NCBI GenBank assembly: GCA_021772975.1 | Contig: JAJFKY010000020.1 | Coordinates: 5,559 to 69,558, forward strand | Direction of reading: 5' to 3' | DNA: 64,000 nucleotides | Source of the DNA: Gammaproteobacteria bacterium | GTDB lineage: Bacteria > Pseudomonadota > Gammaproteobacteria > Xanthomonadales > Wenzhouxiangellaceae | In this document: piece by piece, positions 7,019 through 39,097 of the stretch | How the letters are laid out: each line of letters begins with the position of its first letter | How positions within the stretch are numbered: position 1 is the stretch's first letter | Notes under the pieces: generated by a model | The model's input: the letters and a program-made list of their open reading frames with translations, nothing else | Database searches by the model: none | What the model was told of the DNA's origin: nothing | Translations under genes and position numbers: made by a program

Positions 7019-7108
7019 GTCTTTAGAGCGGGGGGCGCAAGCTGGTATGATAATCGCCTGTTACACTAGCGCTACAAAAAAAACCAACTATTAATCGGGA
7101 AAGCTACC

Positions 7109-20350: not shown

Positions 20351-20488
20351 GCTGACTGAAAACACCTTGCGGTAGCAAGGTCCGGCGGTGTCTGAGCCAG
20401 CCTGCTCGATTGGCAGCAGGCTTTGATGCCAAGCGATGTTCGGCGTGCAGGGAGGCGCGCTGATCCGGTTTTTACAAGGAGTATTGCG

Positions 20489-21727: not shown

Positions 21728-22858
21728 TTAAGCCGAATAATGCCGGCCCTTCCAGCGGGCGCCGCGCCCTGACCAATGCTGCCAGGCGGACAGCCAGGTC
21801 ATGCCGAGATACAGTGTTGCGGTCAACGGCAACCACAGGCCGCTCAGCCGGTTTAACTGATAAAAACGCATCAGCGGCCAATAGCAGATGGTCATCAGCA
21901 ACAGACACAGTACCGCCGCACCCCGGGTGATCCAGCTATCAATCAGTAAGCCGGTCAGCGGCGCCCAGAAGACAATTATCAGCAATACACTGGTGATCAG
22001 TAATAATCCGATGGAATATCGCAGCTGGGTGTAGGCGGTGCGGGCGACCAACTGTGCGACATCGGGCAGCGTGGCGCTGGCCCTGTGACTGAGCACCCCA
22101 TGGCTCAGGCCGATCCAGATCGGATATCCGGCTGCTTTTATTCGCCCGGCCAGGCTGCAGTCGTCAATGACGGCCGATTTAAGGGCGGTATATTCGCCGC
22201 TGGTTCGCAGGGCATCAGTGGTCAGCAGAATGCAGCCGCCCGCGGCGGCGGCGAAGCGTGACCGCCAGTCATTGAGCTGGCCGTTAACCAGTGCAAACGG
22301 GTAGAGCATTTTGAAGAACCATACATAAGCGGGCAGCAGCAGTGTCTGCCAGAAAGTAGCGGTGGGCAGCAGCGCCATGATCGACACCAGGCTGACGGCA
22401 TGGGTTTGCTGGTGATGCAGCAAACGGGCCAGCATGCCGGGCTGCAGCTGGATATCGGCGTCCAGCTGCAGAATCAAGGGGGTCCGGACCTGCTGCAGAC
22501 CCTGCTGGAGCGCCCACAGTTTTCCCGTCCAGCCAGCCGGTAGCCGGGTCCCATGGATCACTTCAGCGCCGGCTTGTCGGGCCAGTTCGGCGGTGGCATC
22601 CCGGGATTGGTCATCAATAACGATAATCCGGTGCCCGGAGCCCTGAAGTTGCACGGCGTGGATGGTTGCGGCGATATGTTCGGCTTCGTTGCGAGCTGGA
22701 ATCAAGACCGTAATATCACTCAAATCAGGGTGCTGTCGGCTGATCACGGAGTCAGGCTCAAGTCGCTCGCGCACGCTCCAGGGCCGCCAGGGCAGGCTCA
22801 CGATGACGACCCAGATCAGGGCCGAGAGCAGGACGCTGTATTCGATCAATACTGTCAC
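21728..22858 (-). CDS. Family 2 glycosyltransferase, hopanoid-associated HpnB-like
   Basis: N-terminal TM, then VLIPARNEAEHI, VIDDQSRDAT, LPAGWTGKLWAL and DADIQL (DxD), followed by C-terminal TM helices. It is the last gene of the hpn block. Confidence 0.6.
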   Translation of the reverse strand: MTVLIEYSVLLSALIWVVIVSLPWRPWSVRERLEPDSVISRQHPDLSDITVLIPARNEAEHIAATIHAVQLQGSGHRIIVIDDQSRDATAELARQAGAEVIHGTRLPAGWTGKLWALQQGLQQVRTPLILQLDADIQLQPGMLARLLHHQQTHAVSLVSIMALLPTATFWQTLLLPAYVWFFKMLYPFALVNGQLNDWRSRFAAAAGGCILLTTDALRTSGEYTALKSAVIDDCSLAGRIKAAGYPIWIGLSHGVLSHRASATLPDVAQLVARTAYTQLRYSIGLLLITSVLLIIVFWAPLTGLLIDSWITRGAAVLCLLLMTICYWPLMRFYQLNRLSGLWLPLTATLYLGMTWLSAWQHWSGRGARWKGRHYSA

Positions 22859-22936: not shown

Positions 22937-24097
22937 TCAGGCGGTTTCCTGGTGCTCGGTCCGGGCCTGGTTACCGGCCGGTTGGTCGGTGCTGACGGTT
23001 ACCGGTATGGCATTTTCGGAGCGGGTCTGGCGGTAGGTAATCGGCAACTCCGGTGCAAACGGGCCATCCAGTCTGGGACCGCGGATACTGGCCATCAGAG
23101 CCTTGATGGGATGTGCGAAGGTATCTTCTACCGCGGTACCTTCATAGCCGCAGTGCGCCATGCAGTTATCGCATTTAGGATTGCGGCCGGTGCCGTAATT
23201 TTCCCATTCGGTGGTTTCAATCAATTCGCGATAGCTGCTGGCGTAGCCTTCATCGACCAGCAGATAACACGGTTTTTGCCAGCCGAAGATATTGTAGGTG
23301 ACATTACTCCAGGGCGTGCACTGGTAGCTCTGATTGCCGGCCAGAAAGTCCAGGTACAGGCTGGAGTGATTCAGTGGCCATTTGTTACCGCCCTGTGCCT
23401 CACGCTGCTTGCCTGCACGGAAAATATCGCGGAATAATTGCTTGGATTTATTGCGTGGCAGAAAAACATCCTGATTGGGCGCAAACTGATAACTGTAGCC
23501 GGGGGACACGGTTATGCCTTCCACCCCAAGCTCAACACAGTAGTCAAAAAACTCAGCCACGCGCCCGGGAATTTCACCATCAAACAGCGTGCAGTTGACG
23601 CTGACCCGGAAACCCTTGTCAATTGCCAGCCGGATAGCGGTGGTGGCTTTTTCAAAGATGCCTTCCTGACAGACGGATTTGTCATGTTCCTCCTGCAGAC
23701 CATCCAGATGGATCGACCAGGTGAAATAGGGGGTGGGTTGGTAGTCATCAATTTTCTTGGCCAGCAAAACAGCGTTGGTGCATAAATACACAAACTTTTT
23801 ACGCGCGATGATGCCGCGCACAATTTCCGGCATCTCTTTATGAATCAACGGTTCACCGCCGGGAATCGATACCACTGGTGCATCGCATTCATCCACGGCA
23901 TTTAAAGCTGCTTCCACACTGATGCGCTTTTGCAGAATATCCTTGGGGTATTCAATCTTGCCGCAGCCGGCACAGGCCAGATTGCATTGGAACAAAGGTT
24001 CCAACATCAATACCAGCGGGTATTTTTTATTCCGCTTTAATTTTTGCGTAATAATATATTTGGCAATCCGAAATTGTTGAATGGCTGGTATGCCCAT
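22937..24097 (-). CDS. hpnH: Adenosyl-hopene transferase (radical SAM)
   Basis: 386 aa. MGIPAIQQFRIAKYIITQKL... with the CNLACAGC radical-SAM cluster motif. It has the typical HpnH N-terminus and length. Confidence 0.88.
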   Translation of the reverse strand: MGIPAIQQFRIAKYIITQKLKRNKKYPLVLMLEPLFQCNLACAGCGKIEYPKDILQKRISVEAALNAVDECDAPVVSIPGGEPLIHKEMPEIVRGIIARKKFVYLCTNAVLLAKKIDDYQPTPYFTWSIHLDGLQEEHDKSVCQEGIFEKATTAIRLAIDKGFRVSVNCTLFDGEIPGRVAEFFDYCVELGVEGITVSPGYSYQFAPNQDVFLPRNKSKQLFRDIFRAGKQREAQGGNKWPLNHSSLYLDFLAGNQSYQCTPWSNVTYNIFGWQKPCYLLVDEGYASSYRELIETTEWENYGTGRNPKCDNCMAHCGYEGTAVEDTFAHPIKALMASIRGPRLDGPFAPELPITYRQTRSENAIPVTVSTDQPAGNQARTEHQETA

Positions 24098-24115: not shown

Positions 24116-24715
24116 TTAAGCTTGATCCGGCTGCGTATAGCGGCGCAATAAGTCTTGATAATCACTGTTCAACCGGGTCCATTCCATTTTGAACCAGGGT
24201 GTGAAACGCTCGGGGTGTTCGCCCAGTTCGCGATCCAGATCAGTGGTATTAATAAACCGGCAGGCCGCGACTTCGGTTTGATTCGGCTGTGGCTGAGCAG
24301 CGCAGCGGCCCAGGTAAACCCAGCACAATTCGCGCTCCGCGCCGGTTTCATCAAATTGTGCATGATACTGGAATTTATACACGAATTCCGCCTCGGTGCG
24401 CATCCCCAGTTCCTGTTCCAGACGGCGTGACACAGCATAATCCACCGATTCGCCGCGGCGCGGATGGCTGCAGCAGGAGTTCGACCAGTACATTGGCCAG
24501 AGCGGTTTGTCAGCACTGCGCTGCTGTAACAGTAATTCGCCCTGTGGATTGAACACGAACAGTGAAAAGGCCCGGTGCAGAGTGCCTTGGTCGCGATGAC
24601 AGGCGGCTTTATCCAGATGGCCGATGGTGCGGTCATTGTCATCCACCAGGATTAAATCTTCGTCGGGAAAAGACACCACCTCGTTCCTGAGTGCGGCATT
24701 GGCTGTATTACCCAT
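24116..24715 (-). CDS. idi: Isopentenyl-diphosphate delta-isomerase, type 1 (Nudix)
   Basis: HRAFSLFVFN, WSNSCCSHP and the E-rich Nudix region. The ATG at 24715 overlaps the stop of the upstream gene by 8 nt. The ORF-track start at 24796 lies inside the upstream gene. Confidence 0.88.
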   Translation of the reverse strand: MGNTANAALRNEVVSFPDEDLILVDDNDRTIGHLDKAACHRDQGTLHRAFSLFVFNPQGELLLQQRSADKPLWPMYWSNSCCSHPRRGESVDYAVSRRLEQELGMRTEAEFVYKFQYHAQFDETGAERELCWVYLGRCAAQPQPNQTEVAACRFINTTDLDRELGEHPERFTPWFKMEWTRLNSDYQDLLRRYTQPDQA

Positions 24716-26969
24716 TAACAGTGACCTCCATGGCCTGATATCCGGCGTTATTGAGTGCTTCAATAACAGTTTGCTGCGTGTCTGGACACAATGCAATAAA
24801 TGCGCCGCCGCCGCCGCCGCCGGTCACTTTGGCGCCCAGCGCACCGTTCTGACGTGCGATCTGTACCATTTCCTCGATTTCCCAGCAGGATACCTGCAGT
24901 GCATTCAACAGACCCTGGCAAACATTCATCAGTTCACCCAGTTGCTGCCAGTCGCCGTTCCGCAAGGCATCCCGGCCCTGCAGTGTCAGGGCATCGATGC
25001 CATGGAACATGCGCTGATAAATAGCCGGGTTTTTCTGCCGCGCGGCGGCTACCCGGGCAACCATTTTGGCGGTCAGGCTTTCCACTCCGCTGTAACCGAT
25101 AACCAGCGGCAGTGGTGCGCCCAGCGACAGCTTTTCCATCAGCTCCGGCCTGCCTTTGAGCGCTTTGCGGAACAGCATCGGATGGCCGTAGGTGGCCATG
25201 GTATTGTCGACGCCGGACGGGCTGCCGTGGGCAACTTTTTCACACTCAAAGGCCAGCGCGTTGACTTCCTCATCACTGAGCTTCAACTGATAATGCTGAT
25301 CCAGCGCGCGGATAATGGCGACCGCCACTGCCGCTGAGCTGCCCAGTCCCACCGCTCGCGGCACGCTCGGGAAAATCTCGATCTTCATCGGCTGGTTGAT
25401 TAATTCCAGCTGCTCCAGAATCAGGGCAATCGGTTTCTCGAATGAATGCCGCTGCTCGGGCCGCATATGCAAACGCTGCTGTGCGCCCCAGCGGGGAATG
25501 ATGATATCGATACCGGCTTCGGTGCTGGTAATTTTTGCCTGAATGGCAAGTGGTACCGGCACCGCCATGGCATGGCTGCCGTAGACCACCGCGTGCTCGC
25601 CGAGCAGAATCACTTTGCCGTGTCCAACCGCCAGCTGTTCGCTGTCGACGATTGCTTCGGCTGACGGATTAACGGTGCCGGCCTGCTGCCTTACGTCATC
25701 CAGAATTTCACGCGCTTTCCAGATTTTGATATCGCCGCTTTCAATCAGACGGTCAACCACCGTATCGAACAGATTCGCGGGTGCGCCAGCCGCCATGGCG
25801 ACGCTGCGGGCATGCAGGGTCATGTGGCCCTGCTGGATACCGCTGGTGACCAGCGCGCGCAGGGCCGAGAAATTCTGCGCCAGACCGACCGCGCCCATCA
25901 GCTCGGCCAGCTCACGCGCTGAGTCCACTTTCAGCATGCGATGGTTGATCATCACCGACTGATTGGATTGTAGGGGACCACCCACGGTGCCGACTTTCAT
26001 GGGGATTTCCAGTTCGCCCACCAGGTTGCCGTCGTTATCCTTGAACCAGCGGGTCAGCGAGCTGTATTGGCCGCTGCGCGCGGCGTAGGCATGCGCGGCT
26101 GCTTCGATCGCGCGCCAGTCGTTGCCGGTCGCCAGCGCTACCGCGTCGACACCGTTCATGATGCCTTTGTTGTGCGTGGCCGCCCGATAGGGATCAACCG
26201 TGGCCAGATCATTGGCCAGAATGATGCCGTCGCGGACCTGTTCGCCATCAAAGCCTTTACCGGCCAGATGTGCCACCGGATAAACCACTTTGGCCTTGAC
26301 CACCGCCCGGTCCGTCAGGTTGGACAGAATCCGCAGAAATACCTTGCCGCCGGTGATGCTTTCCACCAGTGAGGCAACGCCTTCACACATGGTATTGACC
26401 AGGTTGGCGCCCATCGCGTCGCAGGTATTGACCAGCAGATGAATCACCAGCATGTTGGCGCCGGTGGATGGTGAGCGGTGCAGATGGACTTCCAGACCTT
26501 TGGCGCCGCCGCCGCGTGCCACCATTTTAGGATGCAGGCTATTGGCCAGGTTGATGATCTCGTCACTGCGCTGCAGGATGATCGAGCGGGTCTTGCTGGG
26601 GTGGGTGATATCCACCACCTGAATCTGGCCGATCAGAATGGGTTCGGTACTCTCCGCGGTAAAACCACCGGTGTTCAGTGCCAGTTTGGCAGCCGAACTG
26701 ATCGCCGCCACAATCGACGGTTCTTCCACCGCCATCGGCACAATGTAAGGTTTACCGTTGACCACAAAATTCAGACCGATCCCCATCGGTATGCCCAGCA
26801 CACCAATGACATTTTCGATCATTTTGTCAGCCGTGGCCGGGTCCAGCAGATGCTCACCACTGCTGAGCAGACGGTAATCTTCGTTGGACAGCAAGCCGCG
26901 CTCATGCACCGCGCGGACACGATCTTTGAGGCTTAAACGATAAAAACTGGGAATCCGAGATTGTTCCAT
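24708..26969 (-). CDS. Bifunctional class II HMG-CoA reductase / mevalonate kinase (single-ORF fusion)
   Basis: N-terminal ~430 aa carry ENVIG, CDAMGANLVN, KVGTVGG and QQGHMTLHAR (class II HMGR). C-terminal ~310 aa carry GKVILLGEHAVVYG, PRAVGLGSSAAVAVA and KVTGGGGGGAFIAL (GHMP mevalonate kinase). The frame is continuous. The likely start is the ATG at 26969 (MEQSRIP). Confidence 0.88.
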   Translation of the reverse strand: MEQSRIPSFYRLSLKDRVRAVHERGLLSNEDYRLLSSGEHLLDPATADKMIENVIGVLGIPMGIGLNFVVNGKPYIVPMAVEEPSIVAAISSAAKLALNTGGFTAESTEPILIGQIQVVDITHPSKTRSIILQRSDEIINLANSLHPKMVARGGGAKGLEVHLHRSPSTGANMLVIHLLVNTCDAMGANLVNTMCEGVASLVESITGGKVFLRILSNLTDRAVVKAKVVYPVAHLAGKGFDGEQVRDGIILANDLATVDPYRAATHNKGIMNGVDAVALATGNDWRAIEAAAHAYAARSGQYSSLTRWFKDNDGNLVGELEIPMKVGTVGGPLQSNQSVMINHRMLKVDSARELAELMGAVGLAQNFSALRALVTSGIQQGHMTLHARSVAMAAGAPANLFDTVVDRLIESGDIKIWKAREILDDVRQQAGTVNPSAEAIVDSEQLAVGHGKVILLGEHAVVYGSHAMAVPVPLAIQAKITSTEAGIDIIIPRWGAQQRLHMRPEQRHSFEKPIALILEQLELINQPMKIEIFPSVPRAVGLGSSAAVAVAIIRALDQHYQLKLSDEEVNALAFECEKVAHGSPSGVDNTMATYGHPMLFRKALKGRPELMEKLSLGAPLPLVIGYSGVESLTAKMVARVAAARQKNPAIYQRMFHGIDALTLQGRDALRNGDWQQLGELMNVCQGLLNALQVSCWEIEEMVQIARQNGALGAKVTGGGGGGAFIALCPDTQQTVIEALNNAGYQAMEVTVNG

Positions 26970-27058
26970 AACTACCTTTACCGTGGCATGGATAGTTTGC
27001 TTACAGACCAAAAGTCCGGTTCAGCGTATTTGTTATCCAATGCCTGTCTACAGTTCAT

Positions 27059-28129
27059 CTAGGGCTCATTGGGAAATGATTGATCCGTAGTCATTACTAC
27101 GCCTTGTTCCGCCGGGGACAATTCTAACAGACCATAGCCGGCTGCTTGTACCCGCCGGCCGAAATCAGCCAGCGCGTGGGTATCAATGGCGGCGGCGATA
27201 GCGATATCGCCACCGCCGGCGCCGGAGGGTTTGAATGCGACCCCATAATCCGACGCCAGTTGCGCCAGCCGCCGATGGGCGTCGGTGTAGACCGGTGCAT
27301 CAGCAGCGGTGCCCAGTGCCTGCATGGCCTGGCCATAAGCCGTCAGGCATTCCAGCAATTGCGTGGAATCGCCTTGCCGCACCGCGCTGAGACCGCGTTC
27401 TGATAGTTGGCCAAGCTGTTGCAGGTGGGTTGCGTAGCGGCGCGGATGGCTGGCTTTAAAGTGATCCATACGGCTTAGAAATACCCGGGTCGACGCTGAC
27501 TGTCCCAACCATATCCAGATGCACTCAACTTCGCCGGGCCAGCTTAAGGCCTGCACCCTGCAATCATGGCCGTCGATCCGATAGCTGCTCAGGCCGCCCC
27601 ACAGGCTGGCGGCGATATCCGCGCCGCTGCCGCGTCCATCCTGCAGATTACGATGCAACTGCACCAGCAGTGGCAGCCAGCGCCGCCGGTCAAAGTTCTG
27701 ACCCGGATGCCGGAGTTGAAACCAGGCAGCCGCCAGCGCCACGGTTAAGGCGGCGCTTGAGCCGAGTCCGGTTTTATCACCCGCGGGCGTGAAAAAATCG
27801 TGGGTGTCCAGACTTAATGACCAGCTTTGCTGTTGGTCGGCTGCCGCCGGTTGCCAGGCACCCAGTGCATGCATCAATGGGGCGACAAAAGGCAGGCGTT
27901 GATTATTACTGTCGTGTTGCCATTGAAAGCGGCCCTCCGCATCGAAATAAAAAGCCACCGGTTCGTTCACCAGGGGCGGAGCAGTGAGCTGGTAATCCGG
28001 TGCCGGGCAAAGCTGAATACGGGCCTGTTTATCCACTGCCTGCACCATCGCAGGATAGCCTTCCAGAACCGCGTATTCGCCCAGAATCAGGGCTTTGCCG
28101 GGCGCGCTGACCTGAATGGACGGTATCAT
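27059..28129 (-). CDS. mvaK2: Phosphomevalonate kinase (GHMP/ERG8 type)
   Basis: SAPGKALILGEYAVLEG, TGLGSSAALTVALAAA, KPSGAGGGDIAIA. There is an ATGA start/stop overlap with the upstream decarboxylase. Confidence 0.82.
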   Translation of the reverse strand: MIPSIQVSAPGKALILGEYAVLEGYPAMVQAVDKQARIQLCPAPDYQLTAPPLVNEPVAFYFDAEGRFQWQHDSNNQRLPFVAPLMHALGAWQPAAADQQQSWSLSLDTHDFFTPAGDKTGLGSSAALTVALAAAWFQLRHPGQNFDRRRWLPLLVQLHRNLQDGRGSGADIAASLWGGLSSYRIDGHDCRVQALSWPGEVECIWIWLGQSASTRVFLSRMDHFKASHPRRYATHLQQLGQLSERGLSAVRQGDSTQLLECLTAYGQAMQALGTAADAPVYTDAHRRLAQLASDYGVAFKPSGAGGGDIAIAAAIDTHALADFGRRVQAAGYGLLELSPAEQGVVMTTDQSFPNEP

Positions 28130-29130
28130 TCCGAGGCCGGCCTCAGGCGCACGCCCTGACCCAGTCCGCAGTGGATGATATCGATCACCCCGGGAACCTG
28201 CCGCAATTGCTCGGCCACCTGAGCCTCAGCGGCTGCGGTACAGACAGCTTTAACCTGCGGTCCGGCATCCATGGTGAAACACACTTCCAGACCGGCGGCG
28301 CGCCATGCGCGAATGCCGTGCAGGGCCGCTACGCTGGCGGCATTCCAATACAGTACACCCGGCTGGGCCGCCAGCGCTGAGGCGTGCATTTTCAGCGTGC
28401 TGAATTCGGTAACGCTGGCCAGCGCGTCAAAATCCCGCCGTGCTATCGCCTCACGGGCAGTGTTCAGATCGGCTTCCGCACCCGCCACCCAGGCCGGGTA
28501 ATAGGGGGAGGTCTCGGTGGTCAACTGCATGCCGTCGGTGGAGCTGATTTTTTTGCTGCCGGCATCGGTGACCGCAATCAGAACCTTCAAATCCCAGTAG
28601 TCTGGCGGATACAGCGGATGAGCGATGCAGTCTCGGCCATCGCTGCGCTGCCCATGCGCCATCTCTACGATGCCACCAAAAATCGAGCGCGCGGCAGAAC
28701 CCGAGCCACGCCGTGCCAGCAGCGATAACCCGGCGCTGTCGATATCAGCCTGCAGTGCGCTGCTAGTGGCCAGTGCCAGGGCCGCAAAGCCGGACGCCGA
28801 GGAGGCCAGCCCGGCGGCAGTGGGAAAATTATTGTGGCTGCTGATATATGCATACGGACGCTGTTGCCCGGCGTTATGCAGATAGGCAAACACCCGATCC
28901 AGAAAGACGCTGATACGCTCCGCCGCGACTGCCTCAGCAGGCTGCTGATTTAATTCAATCTGATCCCCTTTCAGGCCGGTATCAAAACTGACCGAGGTGG
29001 TGGTGGTCAAGGCATCCAGGGTCAGCGAGAGTGAACCGGTGGCGGGCAGATTAAGCCGCTTATCACGCTTACCCCAGTATTTGATCAGCGCGATATTGGC
29101 GTGCGCAATGGCAGTGGCGGAAGAATTAAT
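28126..29130 (-). CDS. mvaD: Diphosphomevalonate decarboxylase
   Basis: NFPTAAGLASSASGFAALA and RRGSGSAARS motifs. The conserved N-terminal block ANIALIKYWGKRD lies upstream of the ORF-track TTG start (29010). The 5' end is set at an ATT codon 6 nt after an AAGGAA SD-like sequence; this 5' end is uncertain. Confidence 0.8.
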   Translation of the reverse strand: MNSSATAIAHANIALIKYWGKRDKRLNLPATGSLSLTLDALTTTTSVSFDTGLKGDQIELNQQPAEAVAAERISVFLDRVFAYLHNAGQQRPYAYISSHNNFPTAAGLASSASGFAALALATSSALQADIDSAGLSLLARRGSGSAARSIFGGIVEMAHGQRSDGRDCIAHPLYPPDYWDLKVLIAVTDAGSKKISSTDGMQLTTETSPYYPAWVAGAEADLNTAREAIARRDFDALASVTEFSTLKMHASALAAQPGVLYWNAASVAALHGIRAWRAAGLEVCFTMDAGPQVKAVCTAAAEAQVAEQLRQVPGVIDIIHCGLGQGVRLRPASE

Positions 29131-29148: not shown

Positions 29149-30402
29149 TCAGGCAGCGACCGAGGCAGGCCGGTGTTCCAGGAAGCGCTGCCGGTAGTCC
29201 TGGAAATGTTCGTTGATGTGCTCCGCCTGCAGCCCATAGTCAGTCAGTACGTGCCGATGCCGGCCGTAGCGGTGTTTGGGATTGTCGCGCAGCCAGGTAT
29301 GCATGGCGCGTTCGCAGGGCGCCTGCCAGTCCAGTTTAAAATGCGCATAAATCTCTCGCAGGGTTTGTATGGGGGCGGTGGTAAATTGATGATAATCAAC
29401 GTCAAAAATACGCTCGGCCGGAATTTTCTGCTGATCACGAGCCTGCAAAGCCAGCGCCAGCGCCTGTGACCAGCGGGTGATGACTTCCGGTCCGATTTGC
29501 CGGGTTGCATGCCGGTCACTGAAGGCCTGGCGCAGATGGCGGGTCAGGCTGGCCAGTGAGGACATCACTTCGGTGGGTTCCCGGTGGGTCTGGATAATAC
29601 AAGCATCCGGATAGGTTTCCAGCAGCGCCGGTAAGCCAAACAGATGCGCCGGCGCTTTTAATACCCAGCGCCGCACCGGCGTGCCCCATTGCAGATATTG
29701 CAGGAAACGCCGGTGATATTGATAGGCCGTGCGGCGGTCTTGCTGTTCCAGCCACTGCTGGTAGCGCGGCACGTAGTGGGTGGTCTGAAACTGATAGCTG
29801 TGCAAAGCATGCGCGGTGATCACCACGCATTCCTGCGGCAGATGGCCGGCCACCGCATGGATGCGCTGGAAACCGGGCGCCAAGCCGTCCAGCCAGCGTA
29901 GTTGAGCATTGACTTTGCGCTGGGTGCTGCGGTGCCGCGGCTGGAAGGCATGACTGGCCAGCACCGGCTGCATGGTTTCCCAGGTCAGCGGTGCGCGGTG
30001 CCGGTGGTCCTGTGCCAACAGGTTGTGCAGCATACTGGTGCCGGTGCGCGGCAGCCCTACCACAAAAATGGGCCGGTCGACCGGTTGCGCGGTGATATCG
30101 GGGCTGGCCGCGATAGCCTGCTCAATGCCCAGGCGATGCCGCAATAAACGCAATAAATCAGAACGGGCAGCGATGCGCCCGGGCAGATGCAGCCGGGCAG
30201 CATTCTCCAGGTCGGCACACAGCAACCCCAGTGGCTCCCGGGGGTCCGGGGCTCCCCATTGATCATAATTCGCCAGCGCGGTGGCGCTGGTTAGTAGTCG
30301 CTGGCTATCCAGGCGTGGCCCGTCCAGCCCGAAGAGCTTCAATAGTCGGCCGGCCTGGACGGCGGTTTTAATTGTCTGACGGCGTAAATGGCGTTGCATC
30401 AT
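29149..30402 (-). CDS. PAPS-dependent sulfotransferase family protein
   Basis: 417 aa. 5'-PSB loop FVVGLPRTGTSMLHNLL and a 3'-PB-like RRWVLKAPAHL. It is embedded between hpnA and mvaD. Confidence 0.75.
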   Translation of the reverse strand: MMQRHLRRQTIKTAVQAGRLLKLFGLDGPRLDSQRLLTSATALANYDQWGAPDPREPLGLLCADLENAARLHLPGRIAARSDLLRLLRHRLGIEQAIAASPDITAQPVDRPIFVVGLPRTGTSMLHNLLAQDHRHRAPLTWETMQPVLASHAFQPRHRSTQRKVNAQLRWLDGLAPGFQRIHAVAGHLPQECVVITAHALHSYQFQTTHYVPRYQQWLEQQDRRTAYQYHRRFLQYLQWGTPVRRWVLKAPAHLFGLPALLETYPDACIIQTHREPTEVMSSLASLTRHLRQAFSDRHATRQIGPEVITRWSQALALALQARDQQKIPAERIFDVDYHQFTTAPIQTLREIYAHFKLDWQAPCERAMHTWLRDNPKHRYGRHRHVLTDYGLQAEHINEHFQDYRQRFLEHRPASVAA

Positions 30403-30454: not shown

Positions 30455-31471
30455 TCATTCAAAGTAACCATGTTGCCGGTACCAGTCCAGTGCATCACTT
30501 AATGCCAGCTGGGCCGGACGAGGCTGATAACCCAGTTCATCAATAGCACGCTGGCAACTGAAAAACATGGGCTTGCGCGACAATTTTACCCCGGTGACGG
30601 TCATCAAGGGTTCCCGGCGAGTGACCCAGCGTGCCCAGGCTTCACTGACATGTGCCAGTGGCAGGACCAGGTTGGCGGGCAGGCGGATGACGGGTGGCTT
30701 GCGCTGCAGCAGACCGGCCAGACGCTGCAATAGCTCGCGCAGCGTCAGGTTTTCGCTGCCCAGAATATATTGTCTGCCGATCTGGCCATGCGTCAGGGCC
30801 AGTAGATGACCGTCCGCGACATCATCGACATGCACCACATTCAGGCCGGTATCTACAAATGCCGGGACTTTGCCACACGCCGCCGCCACGATCAGGCGGC
30901 CAGTGGGTGTGGGCTTAAGATCGCCCGGCCCGATCGGGGTACTGGGATGCACGATCACCGCCGGCAGTTGCTGCTCGGTGATCATCGCCCGGACGCATTG
31001 CTGGGCGGCATATTTGGTTTGTTTATAAGCACCGATCAGATCGGCTTGATTGACCGGCGTGGTTTCATCACTGGGGCTGCCGTCACGCTGCAGGCCGATG
31101 GCGGCGACGGTGCTGGTGTAAATCACTTTTTTTACGCCGGCCTGCAGACAGGCCTGCATCAATGCCCGTGTGCCTGCCACATTAACAGCCTGCATTGTGT
31201 CCGGGTCCGGAACCCATAAACGGTAATCAGCGGCCACATGAAACACATAATCACAACCTTTCACCGCGGCGTGTAACGAAGCGTGCTGCAGCAGGTCACC
31301 CACGGCATGTTCAACCGTCAGGCCGTTGAGGTTGGTAGGTTCGGTATTGGCTCTGCGCAGCACCCTTACCCGGTGTCCGGCAGCCAGTAACCGGCGGACT
31401 ACGGCGGCACCGACAAAACCGGTGGCGCCGGTTACCAGACTGAGTGGCTGATCAGACACGCGAACCTCCAT
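30455..31471 (-). CDS. hpnA: Hopanoid-associated NAD-dependent epimerase/dehydratase-like protein
   Basis: Rossmann motif LVTGATGFVGAAVVRRL, YxxxK (YKQTKYAAQ), 338 aa. The start overlaps the hpnN stop. Confidence 0.75.
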   Translation of the reverse strand: MEVRVSDQPLSLVTGATGFVGAAVVRRLLAAGHRVRVLRRANTEPTNLNGLTVEHAVGDLLQHASLHAAVKGCDYVFHVAADYRLWVPDPDTMQAVNVAGTRALMQACLQAGVKKVIYTSTVAAIGLQRDGSPSDETTPVNQADLIGAYKQTKYAAQQCVRAMITEQQLPAVIVHPSTPIGPGDLKPTPTGRLIVAAACGKVPAFVDTGLNVVHVDDVADGHLLALTHGQIGRQYILGSENLTLRELLQRLAGLLQRKPPVIRLPANLVLPLAHVSEAWARWVTRREPLMTVTGVKLSRKPMFFSCQRAIDELGYQPRPAQLALSDALDWYRQHGYFE

Positions 31472-34094
31472 CGGTCCGGGGCAGCAGAGCCGGCAGCACC
31501 AGCAGTGTTGCCAGCACCATCAGAGTCAGTCCCAGCGCCAGCAGCAGACCCATGCTGGCGGTGCCGGTGTGGGTGGAAAACATCAGATTGCCGAAGCTCA
31601 GCACCGTGGTGAGTGCGCCGAACACAATACCGCGTGCGGTGGTGGTGCGCAGCACATTGCCTTCGCGAACGTGCACCGCGGCCGGCATATCACCGCTGCG
31701 ATGGCGATAGACCAGATGCACCCCGTTATCCACCGCCACCCCCAGTAATAACGGCAGCGCGACGACATTGGCAAAATTCAGCGGTACCCCCAGCAGCACC
31801 AGCATGGCGCCGGTGACCAGCCCGCCCAGCAGCAACGGCACCATCACCCGGGCACTGTCAGCGACGCTGCGCAGGATAATCAACAGCACCAGCGTGATGC
31901 CGGCCAGCGCCAGCAGCAACGCGGTACGCAAGGCTGCGCTGATTGCCTGGCCGGAGCGCAATTGCAACACCGGCATGCCGGTGACCTGGGGCGCGACTGC
32001 ACGCACCTGCTCGATCAATTCGCTGACATCGGTAAAACTGTTGGTATCCACGGCAGGGAAAATCTGTACGATGTGCGTGCCTGCGTCACTGACCCAGCGG
32101 TCGTGTATCTGGGCGGGCAGATCCTTGACGGTAACGTACTGGTCCACGCTCAAAGCCTGCTGCATGCGCTGCAGCGTAGCGGGCAGCAGCCCGACCAGGG
32201 CACGATTGAGTTTGCTATAAGCAGCTGTGTCAGGCTGGCTGTCCTGAAATTGGCTCAGCCTGCCGGCCAGTTGCCGGGCGGCGTCCGAATCCAGACTCGG
32301 CAGCTCCGTGCTGAGTTGATCAAGCGCAGTTTTCAGTCGCTGAATGTCCGGTTCCGGCAAGTTTTCCGGGATGTTCAGCAAATCCAGCCCGGTGGTCCAG
32401 CGCAGGTCCTCCAACAGCAGCAGTTTTTCATCCTGGTCAGCGGGGACCAGATCCAGTACTGAAATAGCACGTGCTACGCCGGGCAGTTCACGCAACCGGG
32501 TACTGATCCGCGCTGCGCTGGCGGCATCATCGGCCAGCACCTGCAGATTGCGATGGCCGGTGGAGCGGCTCTCCAGCAGCTGGCGCAGCGTGGCAACTGA
32601 TTCTGAACGGCCATCGCGCAGATTCAGAGGGTCACTGTCGAACGGTAACTGCCAGGCCAGCACCAGGCTGGCCAGCGCCACCAGCAAAGCGGCAATGCGC
32701 ACCCGGTTGCGATAAATCAACGGACCGTCCAGCCAGGCTGTGGGAATTGACAGCGATGGGCGTTTCGGCTTTATGTCGGGGGCGGGAATCACCGCGAGCA
32801 GGGCCGGCAACAGGCTGTAACTGATTATGAAAGTGATGAACATCGCTACGCCGGCAATCAGACCCAGCTCAGCCACGCCGCGAAAAGCGGTGGGTATAAA
32901 GGCGAAAAAGCCGATCGCGGTGGTCACGGCGCTCAATGCCAGCGCGCCGGCCAGCAGGCGGGCACTGGACATGATGGCGCTGAGCTTGTCCGGCTGCTGG
33001 ACCAGCTGCTCGCGATAACGCAGCATGAAGTGGATGCCATAATTCACCCCAAGCCCGATATACAGCACCGTAAAGGCGATTGAAATCAGATTGATACGAC
33101 CCACCGCCCAGGCGGCAAAACCCAGAGTCAGGGCAAAACCGACCGTCAATGACAGTAATGCGACAGCGACCAGACGCACCGAGCGCAAACCCCACAGCAT
33201 TACCAGAGCAACCAGGATCAGCGCCAGAATGCCCGCTTGTCTGGCGCCGGTCAGTGCGCTCAACAACTCTTCATGCTCCAGTGCGACCGGTCCGGTCAGC
33301 AGCATACGCACTGCCTGATCGGTGCCCAGGTTCAATTCCTGGCGGATGCTATCAGCGGCCTGCATCACCTCCCGGCCTGCCATAACCTGGTCGAAGTTCA
33401 GGCGCGGTTCGACGATCAGTGTTTCGCGAAATAGGGGGCTGGCTTGAGCCACTCCCGGGGTCTGAAAAAACAACTGCTCCCAGGACAGCGGGCGTGACTG
33501 AGCGCTCAGCAGCTGATCGATGGTGTGCTCCAGGGCCGGCAGGATGCTGTCCAGCCCGACCGCCTGTGTCTGGCTGTATGCGCTGGCTTCGCTGAGCAGT
33601 TCCAGTAAAGTGGCCGCTTGCAGATCTTCGCTCAGCCGACTTAAAAAGGGCTGCGCGGTGCTCAGCCGGTCGCCCAGCTGGTTGAGTTGTTGAGGGGATA
33701 AAAACAGCAGTCCGTTGCGTTGAAAATAAGCCTCACCGGCCAGCCAGTCGACCGCGGCAAAGTGCTGAGGATCGCGCAGCAACCGGCTTTTGACCTGTTC
33801 GGCCGCGCGGCGCGCCTGTTCCGGAGTGGGGCCTTCCACTACCACCAGCAGGTTATTGGCCAGGGTGGGAAACTCGCGCCGGAAACGATCAAAGGTCTGC
33901 CGGAACGGCAGCCTGGCGTCGAGCATGTCGGCGGTATCGGTATTGACCCCCAGATGACCGGCGGTGTAGTGCAGGGAGCCGGCGCTGAGCAGCAGCAGAG
34001 CGACGATGATCAACCACGGATAACCAACCACCCAACCCAGCCAGCGGGTGATGGCGCGGTGCAGCAGATGGGTGTGATCGGGTGGCGGGGGCAT
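31452..34094 (-). CDS. hpnN: Hopanoid-associated RND/MMPL-type transporter
   Basis: 880 aa with two blocks of 6 TM helices and two large periplasmic loops. It sits in hpn context. Confidence 0.8.
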   Translation of the reverse strand: MPPPPDHTHLLHRAITRWLGWVVGYPWLIIVALLLLSAGSLHYTAGHLGVNTDTADMLDARLPFRQTFDRFRREFPTLANNLLVVVEGPTPEQARRAAEQVKSRLLRDPQHFAAVDWLAGEAYFQRNGLLFLSPQQLNQLGDRLSTAQPFLSRLSEDLQAATLLELLSEASAYSQTQAVGLDSILPALEHTIDQLLSAQSRPLSWEQLFFQTPGVAQASPLFRETLIVEPRLNFDQVMAGREVMQAADSIRQELNLGTDQAVRMLLTGPVALEHEELLSALTGARQAGILALILVALVMLWGLRSVRLVAVALLSLTVGFALTLGFAAWAVGRINLISIAFTVLYIGLGVNYGIHFMLRYREQLVQQPDKLSAIMSSARLLAGALALSAVTTAIGFFAFIPTAFRGVAELGLIAGVAMFITFIISYSLLPALLAVIPAPDIKPKRPSLSIPTAWLDGPLIYRNRVRIAALLVALASLVLAWQLPFDSDPLNLRDGRSESVATLRQLLESRSTGHRNLQVLADDAASAARISTRLRELPGVARAISVLDLVPADQDEKLLLLEDLRWTTGLDLLNIPENLPEPDIQRLKTALDQLSTELPSLDSDAARQLAGRLSQFQDSQPDTAAYSKLNRALVGLLPATLQRMQQALSVDQYVTVKDLPAQIHDRWVSDAGTHIVQIFPAVDTNSFTDVSELIEQVRAVAPQVTGMPVLQLRSGQAISAALRTALLLALAGITLVLLIILRSVADSARVMVPLLLGGLVTGAMLVLLGVPLNFANVVALPLLLGVAVDNGVHLVYRHRSGDMPAAVHVREGNVLRTTTARGIVFGALTTVLSFGNLMFSTHTGTASMGLLLALGLTLMVLATLLVLPALLPRTDGGSRV

Positions 34095-34119: not shown

Positions 34120-34767
34120 TTATTCTTCCGCCATCCGCTGGGTTTGGGTCTGGATGTACTCCACTACAGCGTCCAGTCCTCCGGTCTCGAACAGCTTACT
34201 GTATTGCGAGCGTTTCAGTGCCAGATCACTGACCCCGCGGGTGGTGATATTGACGATCCGCCACTCGCCATGCTGTCGCAGCAGCAGGTAATCAAATGCA
34301 ATTCGCTCACCTTTGCCGGTAATCAGTTCATGTCGGACCTGAGCCCGGTTTTCGCCCGGTTGCGCAGCGCTGACCGGGGCAAAGCGCTCGTTGTTGAAAG
34401 TTGTAAAACGCGCTGCGTAGTTGGCCACCGTCAGGGCGCTGAAAGCCGCGCTGAAGCGGGCCTGTTCAGAGGCGCCGAACTCATTCCAGCGGCTGCCAAA
34501 CAAAAACCGCCCCATGCGGGGAAAATTAAATGCGCGTGCGATCACCGGCTGCAGGCGTTCGCTGCGGCCGGTATGGTTTAGCAGGTCGGTCTGCATACTG
34601 TTTAACAGGCTCTGCTCGAGGCTGTCCACCACCGCTTCAGGAGCTGCGTCAGCGGCGGCTGGCAGGCTTTGGGGCGGGGTCGGATTGTCGGCCTGGGCGA
34701 TGCCGGGCGGACTCAGATACAGCACCGTGGTGAGGCTGAAAATCAGGATAATGGCTGGCCTACGCAT
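34120..34767 (-). CDS. MlaC/Ttg2D-family periplasmic lipid-binding protein (HpnM-like)
   Basis: Signal peptide, 215 aa, with FNFPRMGRFLFGSRW and the FDYLLRQHGEWRIVNI pattern of toluene-tolerance Ttg2D proteins. It is adjacent to hpnN. Confidence 0.7.
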   Translation of the reverse strand: MRRPAIILIFSLTTVLYLSPPGIAQADNPTPPQSLPAAADAAPEAVVDSLEQSLLNSMQTDLLNHTGRSERLQPVIARAFNFPRMGRFLFGSRWNEFGASEQARFSAAFSALTVANYAARFTTFNNERFAPVSAAQPGENRAQVRHELITGKGERIAFDYLLLRQHGEWRIVNITTRGVSDLALKRSQYSKLFETGGLDAVVEYIQTQTQRMAEE

Positions 34768-34793: not shown

Positions 34794-35477
34794 TTAGTGA
34801 GGCAGGTCACGCAGCACTGCCGCCGCCGTCAGCAAACGCTGGCGCGCCAGCCGTTGCGCTCTGCCCAGAGCATAGACGTCACGCAGCCGGGCAGGTTCAC
34901 GCGCCAGCCAGCCGGCCAGCTTTAGCTTATGCGGCTGGGCAAAAGCATCGCAGCAGTCGATCAGACCACCGGGCAAAACCTGTTCGGCCGAGTCCAGTAC
35001 CGCCCGGATCACGATCGCAGGCACATCCTGCAGTGCGGCATTTCGCAGTACGGCGGCGCTTTCCATATCAGCGCTGGCGGCACCGGTAGCTGCCGCCAGC
35101 GCCGCTTTGTCTGAACGCGATGCCAACACCGCATGTGTTTCGGCCAGGGGCGCATCACAAACCTCAGTCTGGCATTGATTGAACCGTTGCCGGACACTGG
35201 TCAGTTTTGGCTGATCGCATACCAGGTTCTCACCATCGCTGGCTATCACCTGCGACGGCAGCAGCAAGCTGCCGCCGCGCAGGTCCACTCGCAGACCCGC
35301 CGCGCAGCCAAAACTGATCAGAGTGCGCGCACCCTGGGCCAGCAATGCCTTAGCCCCGGCCCCGGCCGCCTCAGCTCCCATGCCGGTCAGTTGCCAGCGA
35401 ATCCCGGTTGATCGTTTCAATACCCGTTGTAAACACTGTGCCTCCCAGCGCAGCGCCACCACTATTCCAATGCTCAT
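34794..35477 (-). CDS. hpnG: Hopanoid-associated nucleosidase/phosphorylase
   Basis: PNP/UDP family (MSIGIVVALRWEA ... ADMESAAV). The ATG at 35477 avoids overlap with shc. Confidence 0.75.
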   Translation of the reverse strand: MSIGIVVALRWEAQCLQRVLKRSTGIRWQLTGMGAEAAGAGAKALLAQGARTLISFGCAAGLRVDLRGGSLLLPSQVIASDGENLVCDQPKLTSVRQRFNQCQTEVCDAPLAETHAVLASRSDKAALAAATGAASADMESAAVLRNAALQDVPAIVIRAVLDSAEQVLPGGLIDCCDAFAQPHKLKLAGWLAREPARLRDVYALGRAQRLARQRLLTAAAVLRDLPH

Positions 35478-35499
35478 GTCCGCCCGGCGCAGTACGAAT

Positions 35500-37476
35500 T
35501 CAAGCCGGGCTTGCCGGGTCGCCAAGCTGGCGATAGCGGCTTAACGCCCACAACGGGAAATAATGGTTATAGCCGTGATAGCGCAGATAAAACACCCTCG
35601 GAAAGCCGGGCGCGTTGAACCAGGGGTCACTCCAGCTGCCGTCGGACTGCTGATGGTCGATTAACCAGTTGATGCCGCGTTTGACGGCCGGATGCTGAGT
35701 CTGGCCCGCCGCCATTAGAGCCAGTAAGGCCCAGGCGGTGTGACTGCCGCTGCTGAACGGCGCCTGGCCGTTGAGTTCAGGCTGGTCGTAACTGTGATTG
35801 GTTTCGCCCCAGCCGCCGTCTTCGCGCTGGCGTGACAGCAGATAATCAACCGCCCGCTGAAGGTACGCCTGCCGCGGGTCCTCGCCGGCAAAGATCAGCC
35901 CTGCCAGGACACTCCAGGTGCCATAAATATAGTTGGTACCCCAGCGGCCCCACCAGGAACCATCCGCCTGCTGATGGGCTTTCAGATAAGCGATGCAGTT
36001 TTGTATCGCCTGCCGATCGCATGGGCGCCGCAACATGCCCAGCGGCAGCAATACACGACCGGATACATCTTCGGTGGCGGGGTCCAGCAGTGCGCCGTGA
36101 TCGGCAAACGGAATACTGTTGAGATAGTACTTATCATTGTTTGCATCAAATGCGGCAAAACCACCGCGATTACGCCCCCGGCTGGACTGCAGTCCTACCA
36201 GCCAGTCGCAGGCTTGATGGATGGCATCGGTGTATTGGCCATCCTGGTTAACCACCTGCAGCAACGCCGCGACCATGGCGGTGTCATCCAGATCGGGGTA
36301 ATGCGGATTGGCATACTGGAAAGCCCAGCCACCGGGCGGTACGCCGGGAGCCTGAATCGCCCAATCACCGATAAATTCGGTTTCCTGTTTGCTGATCAAC
36401 CAGTCGCAGGCGCGTTGGATGGCCTGTTGGGTGGCTGCATCGTCACCGGCTCTCAGTAACGCCACCGCTGCCCAGCCGGTATCCCAGACCGGCGATACGC
36501 AGGGCTGACAATAGGCGCTGCCGTCTGGATATTCCACCAGCAGTTTTTCAATCGAACGTTTGCAGGTGGCGCGCAGCGGATGATCCTTGGGATAACCGAG
36601 ACAGTCCAGCGCCATGCAGGCGTTGACCATGGCTGGAAAGATGGCGCCCAGGCCATCTTCACCGTTCAGGCGTTTGACAAACCACTGTTCGGCACGCTGG
36701 ATGGCACGGCGGCGGATAAAAGCCGGCACCAACGGCTCGAGACAGTACAGCGAGAAACGCTCCAGGCCCTGCAGAAAGCCATTTAAGCGCGAACGTCGAG
36801 GGAAATAATCACGCACCTGCTCCGGTGGCGTGACAAACAGTTCCTGGATATCTACCCGGTTGGGATTAACGGCCTTCGGCTTATATGCATACAGCACAAA
36901 CAGCGGCACCATGACCGTGCGTGACCAATAGGATACCTTGCTGATATGAAATGGAAACCAGCGCGGCATCAGCATCACTTCGGGTGGAATAAACGGTACC
37001 GCCCGCCATGGCACCTGCTCGAACAGCGCCAGAGCAATGCGGGTAAACACATTCGCGCGTTCCGCACCGCCGGCCGCCCGAATGGCGGTGCGGGCCTGCT
37101 GCATATGCGCGGCATCCACGGCGTGACCGGCCAGCTTGAGCGCATAATAAGCCTTCACGGTGCAACTGATATCCATCGCGCCGCCGGTATATAAGGGCCA
37201 ACCGCCATCTTCCTGCTGGTGCCGGCACAGATATTTCGCCAGACGCTGCTGCAGCCCGGTATCAATTTCATCCATGCAGTGCATCATCATGATGTACTCA
37301 GCGGGGATGGTGCAATCGGCTTCCAGTTCGAAACACCAGTGACCATCAGCATGCTGGTGATCCAGCAGGTTAGCCCGGCCACGTGCAATCGCCTGATCCA
37401 GGCCGCGCTCCGTCTGGGGCGCCCGATCCGGGGGCTGATGGTCTGTCTGCTTGCGGCTGGCCAGGGATACTTGCAT
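35500..37476 (-). CDS. shc: Squalene-hopene cyclase
   Basis: 658 aa. DxDDTA motif (YPDLDDTAMV) and multiple QW repeats (GGWG, DGSW). Confidence 0.95.
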   Translation of the reverse strand: MQVSLASRKQTDHQPPDRAPQTERGLDQAIARGRANLLDHQHADGHWCFELEADCTIPAEYIMMMHCMDEIDTGLQQRLAKYLCRHQQEDGGWPLYTGGAMDISCTVKAYYALKLAGHAVDAAHMQQARTAIRAAGGAERANVFTRIALALFEQVPWRAVPFIPPEVMLMPRWFPFHISKVSYWSRTVMVPLFVLYAYKPKAVNPNRVDIQELFVTPPEQVRDYFPRRSRLNGFLQGLERFSLYCLEPLVPAFIRRRAIQRAEQWFVKRLNGEDGLGAIFPAMVNACMALDCLGYPKDHPLRATCKRSIEKLLVEYPDGSAYCQPCVSPVWDTGWAAVALLRAGDDAATQQAIQRACDWLISKQETEFIGDWAIQAPGVPPGGWAFQYANPHYPDLDDTAMVAALLQVVNQDGQYTDAIHQACDWLVGLQSSRGRNRGGFAAFDANNDKYYLNSIPFADHGALLDPATEDVSGRVLLPLGMLRRPCDRQAIQNCIAYLKAHQQADGSWWGRWGTNYIYGTWSVLAGLIFAGEDPRQAYLQRAVDYLLSRQREDGGWGETNHSYDQPELNGQAPFSSGSHTAWALLALMAAGQTQHPAVKRGINWLIDHQQSDGSWSDPWFNAPGFPRVFYLRYHGYNHYFPLWALSRYRQLGDPASPA

Positions 37477-38655: not shown

Positions 38656-39097
38656 GATTGTGTGCTCCCTGGTTAGCCAATAACCGGCTTGATCACAGCC
38701 ACTATACCCGGCTGAGTCCTGGTTGGCCGCAATTGACTGCCGGCAGGGCAGTCGGCGAACCGCCGCGACAACGGGCTGGCGGCCTGCATCATCATTACAA
38801 TAGGTGTGCTTGAGTAACCCATAAATCAACCAAAGACTACTGTAGTCATCTGTCCAGGCATCCCTGCACCCACCTGCTGATGTTCCTCATCCGGTGTTTA
38901 GCCGCGTAGTATAATCGCTTGTTAAAATGTAACCCAAACCTCTGGTTATGCACGGTTGCCCGCCGGCTCTTTGCCAGCCGTAACAGCTGGCCTGTACCAA
39001 ACGGTTTCCGGGCAGGTTTCGCGCGGCGTGGAGGCAATATTTGATTAGCGATACCGGCGTCATTCACGCTGGTCAAAGTGACGGAATCTGGAGCGAT

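Follow-up and report, generated by a model that had tools for sequence, protein, structure and literature searches.

A sulfotransferase gene within a hopanoid and mevalonate gene block

The window analysed here is a 64-kb stretch of contig JAJFKY010000020.1 (assembly GCA_021772975.1, positions 5,559 to 69,558 of the forward strand) from a gammaproteobacterium of the family Wenzhouxiangellaceae, and our subject is the predicted sulfotransferase, hereafter ST, that it encodes on the minus strand at 29149..30402. ST is the seventh of 13 co-directional minus-strand genes, which span 38829 to 21728 and are spaced by -89 to +78 nt, in the order sqs-shc-hpnG-hpnM-hpnN-hpnA-ST-mvaD-PMK-HMGR/MVK-idi-hpnH-hpnB. 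Its companions in the block are all isoprenoid or hopanoid genes, and it lies inside a cluster that includes both shc and hpnH. A first-pass annotation of this DNA, which gave no strand, had described ST as embedded in a hopanoid/mevalonate block, and the operon-like arrangement bears this out. The members of the block are as follows.

37501..38829, minus: squalene synthase of the single-enzyme sqs type, first gene of the block (SQS_PSY, E 7e-55; best NCBIfam model TIGR01559)
35500..37476, minus: shc, squalene-hopene cyclase (SQHop_cyclase_N, E 1e-128; SQHop_cyclase_C, E 1e-130)
34794..35525, minus: hpnG-like phosphorylase/nucleosidase, adenosylhopane to ribosylhopane (PNP_UDP_1; TIGR03468, 125.2 bits, below the cutoff of 187.1)
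34120..34767, minus: hpnM, MlaC-like periplasmic lipid-binding protein (MlaC, E 2e-33; TIGR03481, 158.1 bits, marginally below the cutoff of 160.1)
31452..34094, minus: hpnN, RND/MMPL hopanoid-transporter family (TIGR03480, 846.4 bits, cutoff 751.85)
30455..31471, minus: hpnA, extended-SDR NAD(P)-dependent oxidoreductase, directly upstream of ST (TIGR03466, 461 bits, cutoff 367.65)
29149..30402, minus: ST, predicted sulfotransferase
28126..29130, minus: mvaD, diphosphomevalonate decarboxylase, downstream of ST (TIGR01240, 220 bits, cutoff 171.35)
27059..28129, minus: GHMP kinase, probable phosphomevalonate kinase (PMK) (GHMP_kinases_N; best NCBIfam model TIGR01220, 110 bits, below cutoff)
24708..27011, minus: fusion of class II HMG-CoA reductase (HMGR) and mevalonate kinase (MVK), 767 aa (TIGR00532, 425.9 bits, residues 13-401; TIGR00549, 255.1 bits, residues 464-741)
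24116..24796, minus: idi, type 1 isopentenyl-diphosphate isomerase (NF002995, 176.4 bits, cutoff 127)
22937..24097, minus: hpnH, adenosylhopane synthase, radical SAM (TIGR03470, 523.2 bits, cutoff 225.05)
21728..22858, minus: hpnB-like GT2 glycosyltransferase, last gene of the block (TIGR03469, 343.1 bits, below the cutoff of 379.25)

NCBIfam cutoffs are exceeded by HpnA, HpnN (model TIGR03480), HpnH, the mvaD and idi products, HMGR and MVK, as well as by the farnesyl-diphosphate synthase (FPPS) encoded beside the block. The best match of HpnA in the Protein Data Bank (PDB) is 3wj7 (E 4e-112), presumably Gox2253, an NADPH-dependent aliphatic aldehyde reductase of Gluconobacter oxydans. Among the other solved relatives of HpnA, NAD(P)H carbonyl reductases (dihydroflavonol, cinnamoyl-CoA) predominate over sugar epimerases.

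ST is separated from hpnA by the 52 nt given in the first-pass annotation. The 18-nt spacer that had been quoted for ST and mvaD holds only if mvaD starts at an ATT codon (29128-29130, minus strand). There is no ATG, GTG or TTG upstream of the conserved mvaD N-terminus (ANIALIKYWGKRD); N-terminal homology reaches 29130, four orthologues have ATG at exactly the position of the ATT, and the sequence AAGGA precedes it. We see this codon as either a rare start or a point substitution or sequencing error. A scan for consensus promoters and terminators gave counts at shuffle expectation and placed nothing in the hpnA-ST or ST-mvaD spacer; co-transcription across hpnA-ST-mvaD is plausible.

Two features of the block are of separate interest. 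It contains a single eukaryote/sqs-type squalene synthase instead of hpnCDE, the three-gene route common in hopanoid producers. A mevalonate segment (24708-29130, comprising mvaD, the PMK-like gene, HMGR::MVK and idi) is also nested inside this gammaproteobacterial hopanoid cluster, and no HMG-CoA synthase gene was found in the window or in the syntenic loci described below.

ST is predicted to be an intact sulfotransferase

The ST reading frame opens with two ATG codons in a row, ends at TGA and specifies 417 aa; in the public gene call, P0001, the protein begins at the second Met, which gives 416 aa. Residues 111-360 match Pfam Sulfotransfer_3 (PF13469) at E 3e-46, scoring 158.8 bits where the cutoff is 27. 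No NCBIfam model matches ST, which has no curated name, and looking up eight family members by cluster yielded neither names nor accessions. By sequence, its sole solved relatives in the PDB are 2zq5 (E 4.7e-58) and 2z6v (E 6.2e-39), labelled in the structure search as Stf1 of M. tuberculosis and Stf9 of M. avium, respectively. The Stf1 alignment spans ST residues 35-401 and the Stf9 alignment residues 42-407, thus including an N-terminal helical extension of ~100 aa.

An AlphaFold2 (AF2) model built on 44 homologues has a mean predicted local distance difference test score of 93.4 and a predicted template-modelling score of 0.91. In Foldseek searches it gave target-normalised template-modelling scores of 0.88 to Stf1 and 0.82 to Stf9, and the lower-ranked named PDB matches were PAPS (3'-phosphoadenosine-5'-phosphosulfate)-dependent sulfotransferases, among them TPSTs, the CurM sulfotransferase domain and 3-OSTs, or related PAPS/PAP-binding enzymes such as retinol dehydratase. 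ST has a maximum 19-residue hydropathy of 1.0 and no transmembrane segment, and because it lacks a hydrophobic segment it should be soluble or peripheral.

Across the 44 homologues, which are 42-71% identical to ST, 54 alignment columns are invariant, and ST keeps all 54. These include P118, R119 and G121 in the 5'-phosphosulfate-binding loop (118-PRTGTS-123), which follows strand 112-116 of the AF2 model. Other invariant residues are W141, E142, E191, C192, K249, P251 and H253, followed by T272, H273, R274, P276, S282 and S285; E191 aligns with a Glu in Stf1 and Stf9. The description of this protein as a 417-aa sulfotransferase with a PAPS-binding loop was thus well founded: the peptide quoted for that loop, GLPRTGTSMLHNLL, is present at residues 116-129, the Sulfotransfer_3 match is strong and the family-invariant residues are in place. 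A second peptide, RRWVLKAPAH (residues 244-253), had been called 3'-phosphate-binding-like, which is probably a mislabelling. In the AF2 model, the element 268-ACIIQTHREPTEVMSS-282 consists of a strand (268-273), a loop with H273-R274-x-P276, and a helix (276-294) that carries S282. With its R274 and S282, this element would fit the canonical architecture of the 3'-phosphate-binding motif, and WVLKAPAH, with the invariant K249 and H253, is a separate conserved strand-loop.

On this evidence ST is very probably a functional sulfotransferase. It is predicted, from sequence and the structural model, to be a soluble cytoplasmic PAPS-dependent O-sulfotransferase of the Stf1/Stf9 structural family. 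We rejected a pseudogene or decaying gene, as all invariant residues are retained and the AF2 model is confident. The GC content of the gene (0.61) and its GC at third codon positions (GC3, 0.70) are the same as those of its neighbours and its position is conserved in relatives down to 52% identity, so a recent horizontal insertion was also rejected.

The block is conserved in close relatives

Close relatives were taken from a scan of species-representative genomes, with up to 10 kb of flank per locus; loci are numbered with the prefix L and proteins with the prefix P. Three close homologues of ST, at 69-71% identity, come from two Wenzhouxiangellaceae metagenome-assembled genomes (MAGs), one of them a complete chromosome, and from one unclassified gammaproteobacterial MAG. 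Their loci (L001-L003) keep the gene order from fpps to hpnH or hpnB. L005, a metagenomic contig whose ST is 52% identical, has the same 13-gene order. ST lies together with shc and hpnH in all four. Within the close orthologous blocks, identities are 69-71% for ST, 72-75% for hpnN, 74-82% for hpnA, 71-73% for mvaD, 61-66% for PMK and 57-59% for hpnG. ST has diverged to a similar extent as hpnN, hpnA and mvaD, as would be expected from these sequences for a gene under ordinary constraint.

The block is bordered in the window by two further genes that recur in these relatives.

39041..40000, plus: FPPS, divergent from sqs (NF045485, 323.3 bits, cutoff 275)
18849..19940, minus: Rieske non-haem-iron oxygenase alpha subunit, at the distal end of the block (Rieske and Ring_hydroxyl_A domains)

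FPPS has the same position next to sqs in L001-L003 and L005. The Rieske gene lies 1.8 kb beyond hpnB in the window; in L005 (18468-19550) it directly follows hpnB on the same strand, and it is also present in L002.

Many distant relatives are coupled to hopanoid-associated membrane proteins

In a neighbour-joining tree of the 120 best homologues, the clade containing ST of the window stands beside P0009/P0010, and then beside a group that includes P0035, P0038 and P0045. Sister clades at 44-49% identity carry HpnN-ST, HpnN-HpnA-ST or HpnM-HpnN-HpnA-HpnL-ST. At L013, HpnN (826 bits) is followed by ST and then by a Kdo-transferase-like gene; L017 has HpnN (766 bits), HpnA (507 bits) and ST; and L007, a Wenzhouxiangellaceae MAG, has a GMC oxidoreductase, HpnM (172 bits), HpnN (805), HpnA (476), HpnL (312) and ST. 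All hpn matches at these three loci are above their NCBIfam cutoffs. The adjacency of HpnA and ST is found in L017, L007, L023, L028 and L032. The gene order hpnM-hpnN-hpnA-ST seen in the window is therefore a module that also occurs alone elsewhere, and in the lineage of the window it has lost hpnL and now stands between the shc and mevalonate segments. As this order matches the stand-alone module, we regard the adjacency of ST to mvaD as secondary.

Two of these loci have additional genes. L015 shows the order of L007 together with a second HpnA-like SDR gene and a second ST; in L015 (8872-11131) and L023 (10209-12456) the extra HpnA-like SDR is antisense, and the additional Sulfotransfer_3 protein of L023 has 588 aa, which hints at more than one sulfation step in some HpnM-HpnN-HpnA-HpnL-ST loci. 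At L017, beside HpnN-HpnA, a gene of the FGE-sulfatase family (5257-7119; 620 aa, with a formylglycine-generating enzyme domain) runs convergently to ST and could reflect the turnover of sulfate esters.

HpnL is closely tied to ST at many loci. The two reading frames often overlap by 4 nt, as in L006 (8961-11212), L008 (6262-9233), L010 (6970-9224) and L015 (6876-8896). Fused proteins also occur: P0092 is an HpnL C-terminus followed by ST, and P0265 (762 aa) is an ST followed by LPG_synthase_TM. A CDP-alcohol phosphatidyltransferase, an HpnL-subfamily protein and ST occur in this order in L006, L008 and L010, with the first two fused in L008, and triads of CDP-OH_P_transf, HpnL and ST are also seen in L029, L031 and L035. 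Another triad, in L020, L030, L045 and L048, comprises a class-III aminotransferase, HpnL and ST, with a CysN/CysC fusion for PAPS synthesis downstream in L030; the aminotransferase might be HpnO-like. In L011, ST lies between an HpnN-like RND protein with a sterol-sensing domain and a bifunctional PAPS synthase.

A few loci link ST homologues to genes of hopanoid or isoprenoid synthesis. HpnR, the hopanoid-specific C-3 methylase, is directly downstream of ST in L039 (5735-7348) and L047 (2257-3792), with 871.7 bits against a cutoff of 650, and beyond it lie an HpnL-like gene and CopD. ST is divergent from squalene synthase in L069, and an FPP (farnesyl diphosphate)-synthase-like gene lies upstream of ST in L070.

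Frequency of hopanoid-type neighbours

A metagenome scan with the ST family alignment yielded 80 loci at 38-48% identity, of which 56 have at least 2 kb of flank. Neighbours were scored by tblastn with a fixed query panel, at no less than 30% identity and 50% coverage. An hpn-type neighbour was found within 6 kb in 32 of the 80 loci, and the individual partners of ST are distributed as follows.

HpnL: 27/80 metagenomic loci
HpnN-like: 10/80
PAPS-synthesis genes: 5/80 (L011 is counted separately)
HpnA: 4/80
HpnM: 3/80
HpnR: 2/80
Squalene synthase: 1/80
FPP-synthase-like: 1/80

HpnL lies within 400 nt of ST on the same strand in 24 of the 80. Dereplication by single linkage at 70% identity left 29 lineages, 23 of them with enough flank, and 12 of these 23 have an hpn-type neighbour (HpnL in 11, HpnN-like in seven). 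We thus see a large, uncharacterised clade of sulfotransferases whose members are habitually encoded with, translationally coupled to or fused with hopanoid-associated membrane proteins.

The family is large, with 8,898 matches at E <= 1e-3 and 1,904 at E <= 1e-30 among 50%-identity representatives. Some wider relatives, at 32-39% identity, are fused to an MBL/alkyl-sulfatase-like domain or to a PKS-TE module, so the superfamily as a whole certainly does not share a single kind of acceptor.

The likely acceptor of ST

The product of ST is probably a sulfated membrane lipid, and perhaps a sulfated hopanoid, which would be new to the literature searched. Gene context is our basis for proposing its acceptor, the position that is sulfated and what the partner proteins do. 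We hold it to be quite likely that ST acts on some membrane lipid, whether a hopanoid, another polar lipid or another isoprenoid. For a hopanoid, in this genome most probably an extended one, we would put the probability at roughly 0.45. The hopanoid reading ranks above its rivals for this particular gene because the rest of the block is isoprenoid/hopanoid in content and because the nearest clades retain HpnN, HpnA and HpnM.

Several observations weigh against a hopanoid acceptor. The first-pass annotation had proposed that linkage of this sulfotransferase clade with hopanoid genes be examined in other genomes, naming shc and hpnH. At 38-52% identity such linkage is frequent and spread over many lineages for hpnL, hpnN, hpnA and hpnM, and is occasionally seen for hpnR, so the lack of linkage that the annotation had named as refuting does not arise; but neither shc nor hpnH occurs in the examined flanks of any ST locus outside the close clade, so at the distant loci the link to hopanoids runs through families of unproven function. 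About half of the loci with enough flank have no hpn-type neighbour. HpnL, the commonest partner of ST elsewhere, has no homologue in the window or in L001-L003 and L005, and there are no PAPS-synthesis genes in the window. The HpnN of the window scores 616 bits with the strict equivalog model NF052374, for which the cutoff is 1100. At L004, where ST is 42% identical, an mvaD-PMK-HMGR/MVK-idi operon runs divergently from it and HMG-CoA synthase is encoded nearby, and there is no hpn gene within 10 kb. In several clades ST is paired with CDP-alcohol phosphatidyltransferase, so the acceptor may vary, and for those clades a phospholipid acceptor is suggested. Finally, the literature searched contained no relevant report on a sulfated hopanoid or bacteriohopanepolyol (BHP) or on a hopanoid sulfotransferase, in agreement with the annotation's remark that none had been characterised.

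One rival idea is that ST sulfates a polar membrane lipid other than a hopanoid; phospholipid head groups, glycolipids, aminolipids and components of lipid A or lipopolysaccharide are examples. HpnL, HpnN and HpnM would then flip and export that product, and the hopanoid block would merely be where envelope-lipid genes have gathered. The CDP-OH_P_transf-HpnL-ST triads of six loci, the Kdo-transferase-like gene immediately after ST in L013 and the absence of shc and hpnH from the examined flanks outside the close clade all speak for it, as does the membership of HpnL in the transmembrane family of the lysyl-phosphatidylglycerol flippase domain, although flippase activity of HpnL itself is unproven (PMC12324291). 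However, apart from ST the block in the window contains only isoprenoid and hopanoid genes, what the closest sister clades carry is not phospholipid genes but HpnN, HpnA and HpnM, with scores over the curated cutoffs, and HpnR and squalene synthase adjoin ST in independent lineages. For ST of the window we therefore consider a non-hopanoid polar lipid unlikely. Another mevalonate-derived isoprenoid, such as a hydroxylated quinone, a polyprenol, a squalene-derived diol or a carotenoid, would follow the logic of the Cyp128/Stf3 pathway to sulfomenaquinone, perhaps after hydroxylation by the Rieske oxygenase. The isoprenoid sulfation performed by Stf3 is a precedent (PMC7404182), ST is directly upstream of mvaD in the window, L004 and L070 place ST beside isoprenoid genes of the mevalonate and FPP steps, and L005 and L002 have kept the Rieske gene at the end of the block. 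Yet mevalonate linkage is confined to the close clade and one distant locus, compared with dozens of cases of linkage to HpnL or HpnN; the block holds no quinone or carotenoid genes; and the Rieske protein weakly resembles oxygenases of carnitine, betaine and aromatic substrates. Its best PDB match is the oxygenase subunit of carnitine monooxygenase (E 1.4e-24), and a role as a tailoring enzyme or lipid hydroxylase is speculative. This makes an isoprenoid other than a hopanoid a rather improbable acceptor. A specific coupling of ST to the mevalonate pathway, which L004 had brought to mind, was downgraded on the same count of one locus outside the close clade against dozens with HpnL or HpnN.

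Least probable, in our estimate, is that the acceptor is a soluble small molecule (as in synthesis of the osmolyte choline-O-sulfate), a peptide, a protein or a polysaccharide, and that the position of ST in a lipid block is a historical accident. The fusions to MBL/alkyl-sulfatase-like and PKS-TE domains do show that acceptors in the wider family are diverse, a GMC gene of the 'choline dehydrogenase subfamily' heads the HpnM-HpnN-HpnA-HpnL-ST loci L007, L015 and L023, and an origin in Wenzhouxiangellaceae suggests saline habitats. Against this, the consistent partners of ST are integral-membrane lipid-handling proteins, to which it is even fused; gene order inside the lipid block is kept down to 52% identity; and no genes for osmolyte transport or synthesis are adjacent to ST. 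Choline-sulfate synthesis, suggested by the GMC and Rieske neighbours, was rejected: the similarity is weak and at the level of annotation, with the Rieske protein scoring 96 bits against a cutoff of 670 for the GbcA model.

A possible route to a sulfated hopanoid

If the acceptor is a hopanoid, the block would make squalene from mevalonate-derived FPP, and Shc would cyclise it. HpnH and HpnG would extend the side chain to give ribosylhopane and then bacteriohopanetetrol (BHT), with HpnA perhaps performing a still-unassigned NADPH-dependent reduction. At the inner leaflet, ST would use PAPS to sulfate a hydroxyl on the polyol side chain or on a sugar added by HpnB, to yield an anionic sulfated hopanoid, which HpnN and HpnM would carry to the outer membrane. 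In relatives of ST that have HpnL, this protein might first flip the sulfated product, by analogy with the homologous domain in MprF.

Two studies from 2025 bear on these roles. They describe hpnA, hpnB, hpnL and hpnM as genes without an established function, report enrichment of hpnL and hpnM near shc, and leave the enzyme that converts ribosylhopane to BHT unassigned (PMC12583986, PMC12324291). Their main texts make no mention of a sulfotransferase or a sulfated bacteriohopanepolyol. We see HpnA as a candidate ribosylhopane-to-BHT reductase; speculatively, it would make the primary alcohol of BHT that ST then sulfates. A more far-reaching proposal, which we advance tentatively and regard as doubtful, is that ST is the missing partner of HpnL in an MprF-like system that modifies and flips sulfated BHPs, with HpnN and HpnM responsible for export to the outer membrane and HpnA, the SDR usually encoded just upstream, acting as the NADPH-dependent ribosylhopane-to-BHT reductase that supplies the hydroxyl for sulfation. 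Sulfated BHPs may have been overlooked, since acetylation, periodate cleavage and positive-ion mass spectrometry would lose or miss sulfate esters.

Comparison with known systems

The nearest solved enzymes, Stf1 and Stf9, share with ST the fold, an architecture of ~400 aa with an N-terminal helical extension, the PRTGT loop, the WxLKxPxH strand and E191. They differ in being only 26-34% identical, in their actinobacterial origin and in having no linkage to hopanoid genes, and E142, which is invariant in the ST clade, is not conserved in them. We know of no physiological acceptor for either enzyme. Stf3 resembles the role inferred for ST in function, as a bacterial Stf enzyme from a small operon that O-sulfates a hydroxyl of an isoprenoid membrane lipid. 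In the Cyp128/Stf3 pathway to sulfomenaquinone (S881) it sulfates hydroxylated menaquinone-9 (PMC7404182). Its partner is the P450 Cyp128, whereas the partners of ST are hpn genes; there is no P450 gene alongside the ST block, and the Rieske oxygenase lies nearby instead. BT0416 of Bacteroides thetaiotaomicron, a PAPS-dependent cholesterol sulfotransferase encoded near genes for PAPS supply (PMC9417993), is likewise a bacterial enzyme acting on a lipid of the polycyclic triterpenoid type, and some relatives of ST are also found beside PAPS synthase genes. However, its substrate is the 3-OH of a host or dietary sterol rather than an endogenous lipid, it lacks HpnL and HpnN partners, and neither the sequence searches nor the structure searches with ST brought it up.

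In MprF, a cytoplasmic enzyme that modifies a lipid head group is coupled to an LPG_synthase_TM flippase-like domain, and this arrangement recurs in relatives of ST through the fusions P0092 and P0265 and the 4-nt overlaps. The enzyme module of MprF depends on aminoacyl-tRNA and adds a positive charge, whereas ST would add a negative one, and the block in the window has no HpnL partner. HpnI/J/K, HpnO, HpnP and HpnR are encoded in or near hpn clusters, in a genomic position equivalent to that of ST; these enzymes act on C35 hopanoids, and there is no sulfotransferase among them.

Hopanoids are major membrane lipids of bacteria, and geohopane biomarkers derive from them. The repeated coupling or fusion of ST family members to HpnL, and their place beside HpnN, HpnA and HpnM, offers a testable hypothesis for the orphan hpn genes in terms of the sulfation, flipping and export of a lipid, and puts a known kind of enzyme in a new and recurrent lipid context. 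A sulfated hopanoid, if made, would be a new class of charged lipid in bacterial envelopes; it would mean that BHP inventories should be measured differently, and it would provide a sulfur-bearing hopanoid precursor of relevance to the preservation of sedimentary hopanoids. Were the acceptor another lipid, the pairing of ST and HpnL would still represent a new, anionic counterpart of the MprF system.

Other genes in the window

Between hpnB and the Rieske gene, a reprolysin-type (M12B) zinc metallopeptidase is encoded on the plus strand at 20423-21682. It looks like an insertion, and the corresponding position in L005 is empty of M12B. The remaining genes of the window are housekeeping genes, among them gyrA, nadC, purK, smc, zipA, ligA and trpS. 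One further gene, at 50309-51862 on the minus strand, encodes a protein of 517 aa in which a RuBisCO large-chain-like catalytic domain (E 1e-19) is joined to a C-terminal cupin, an unusual fusion.

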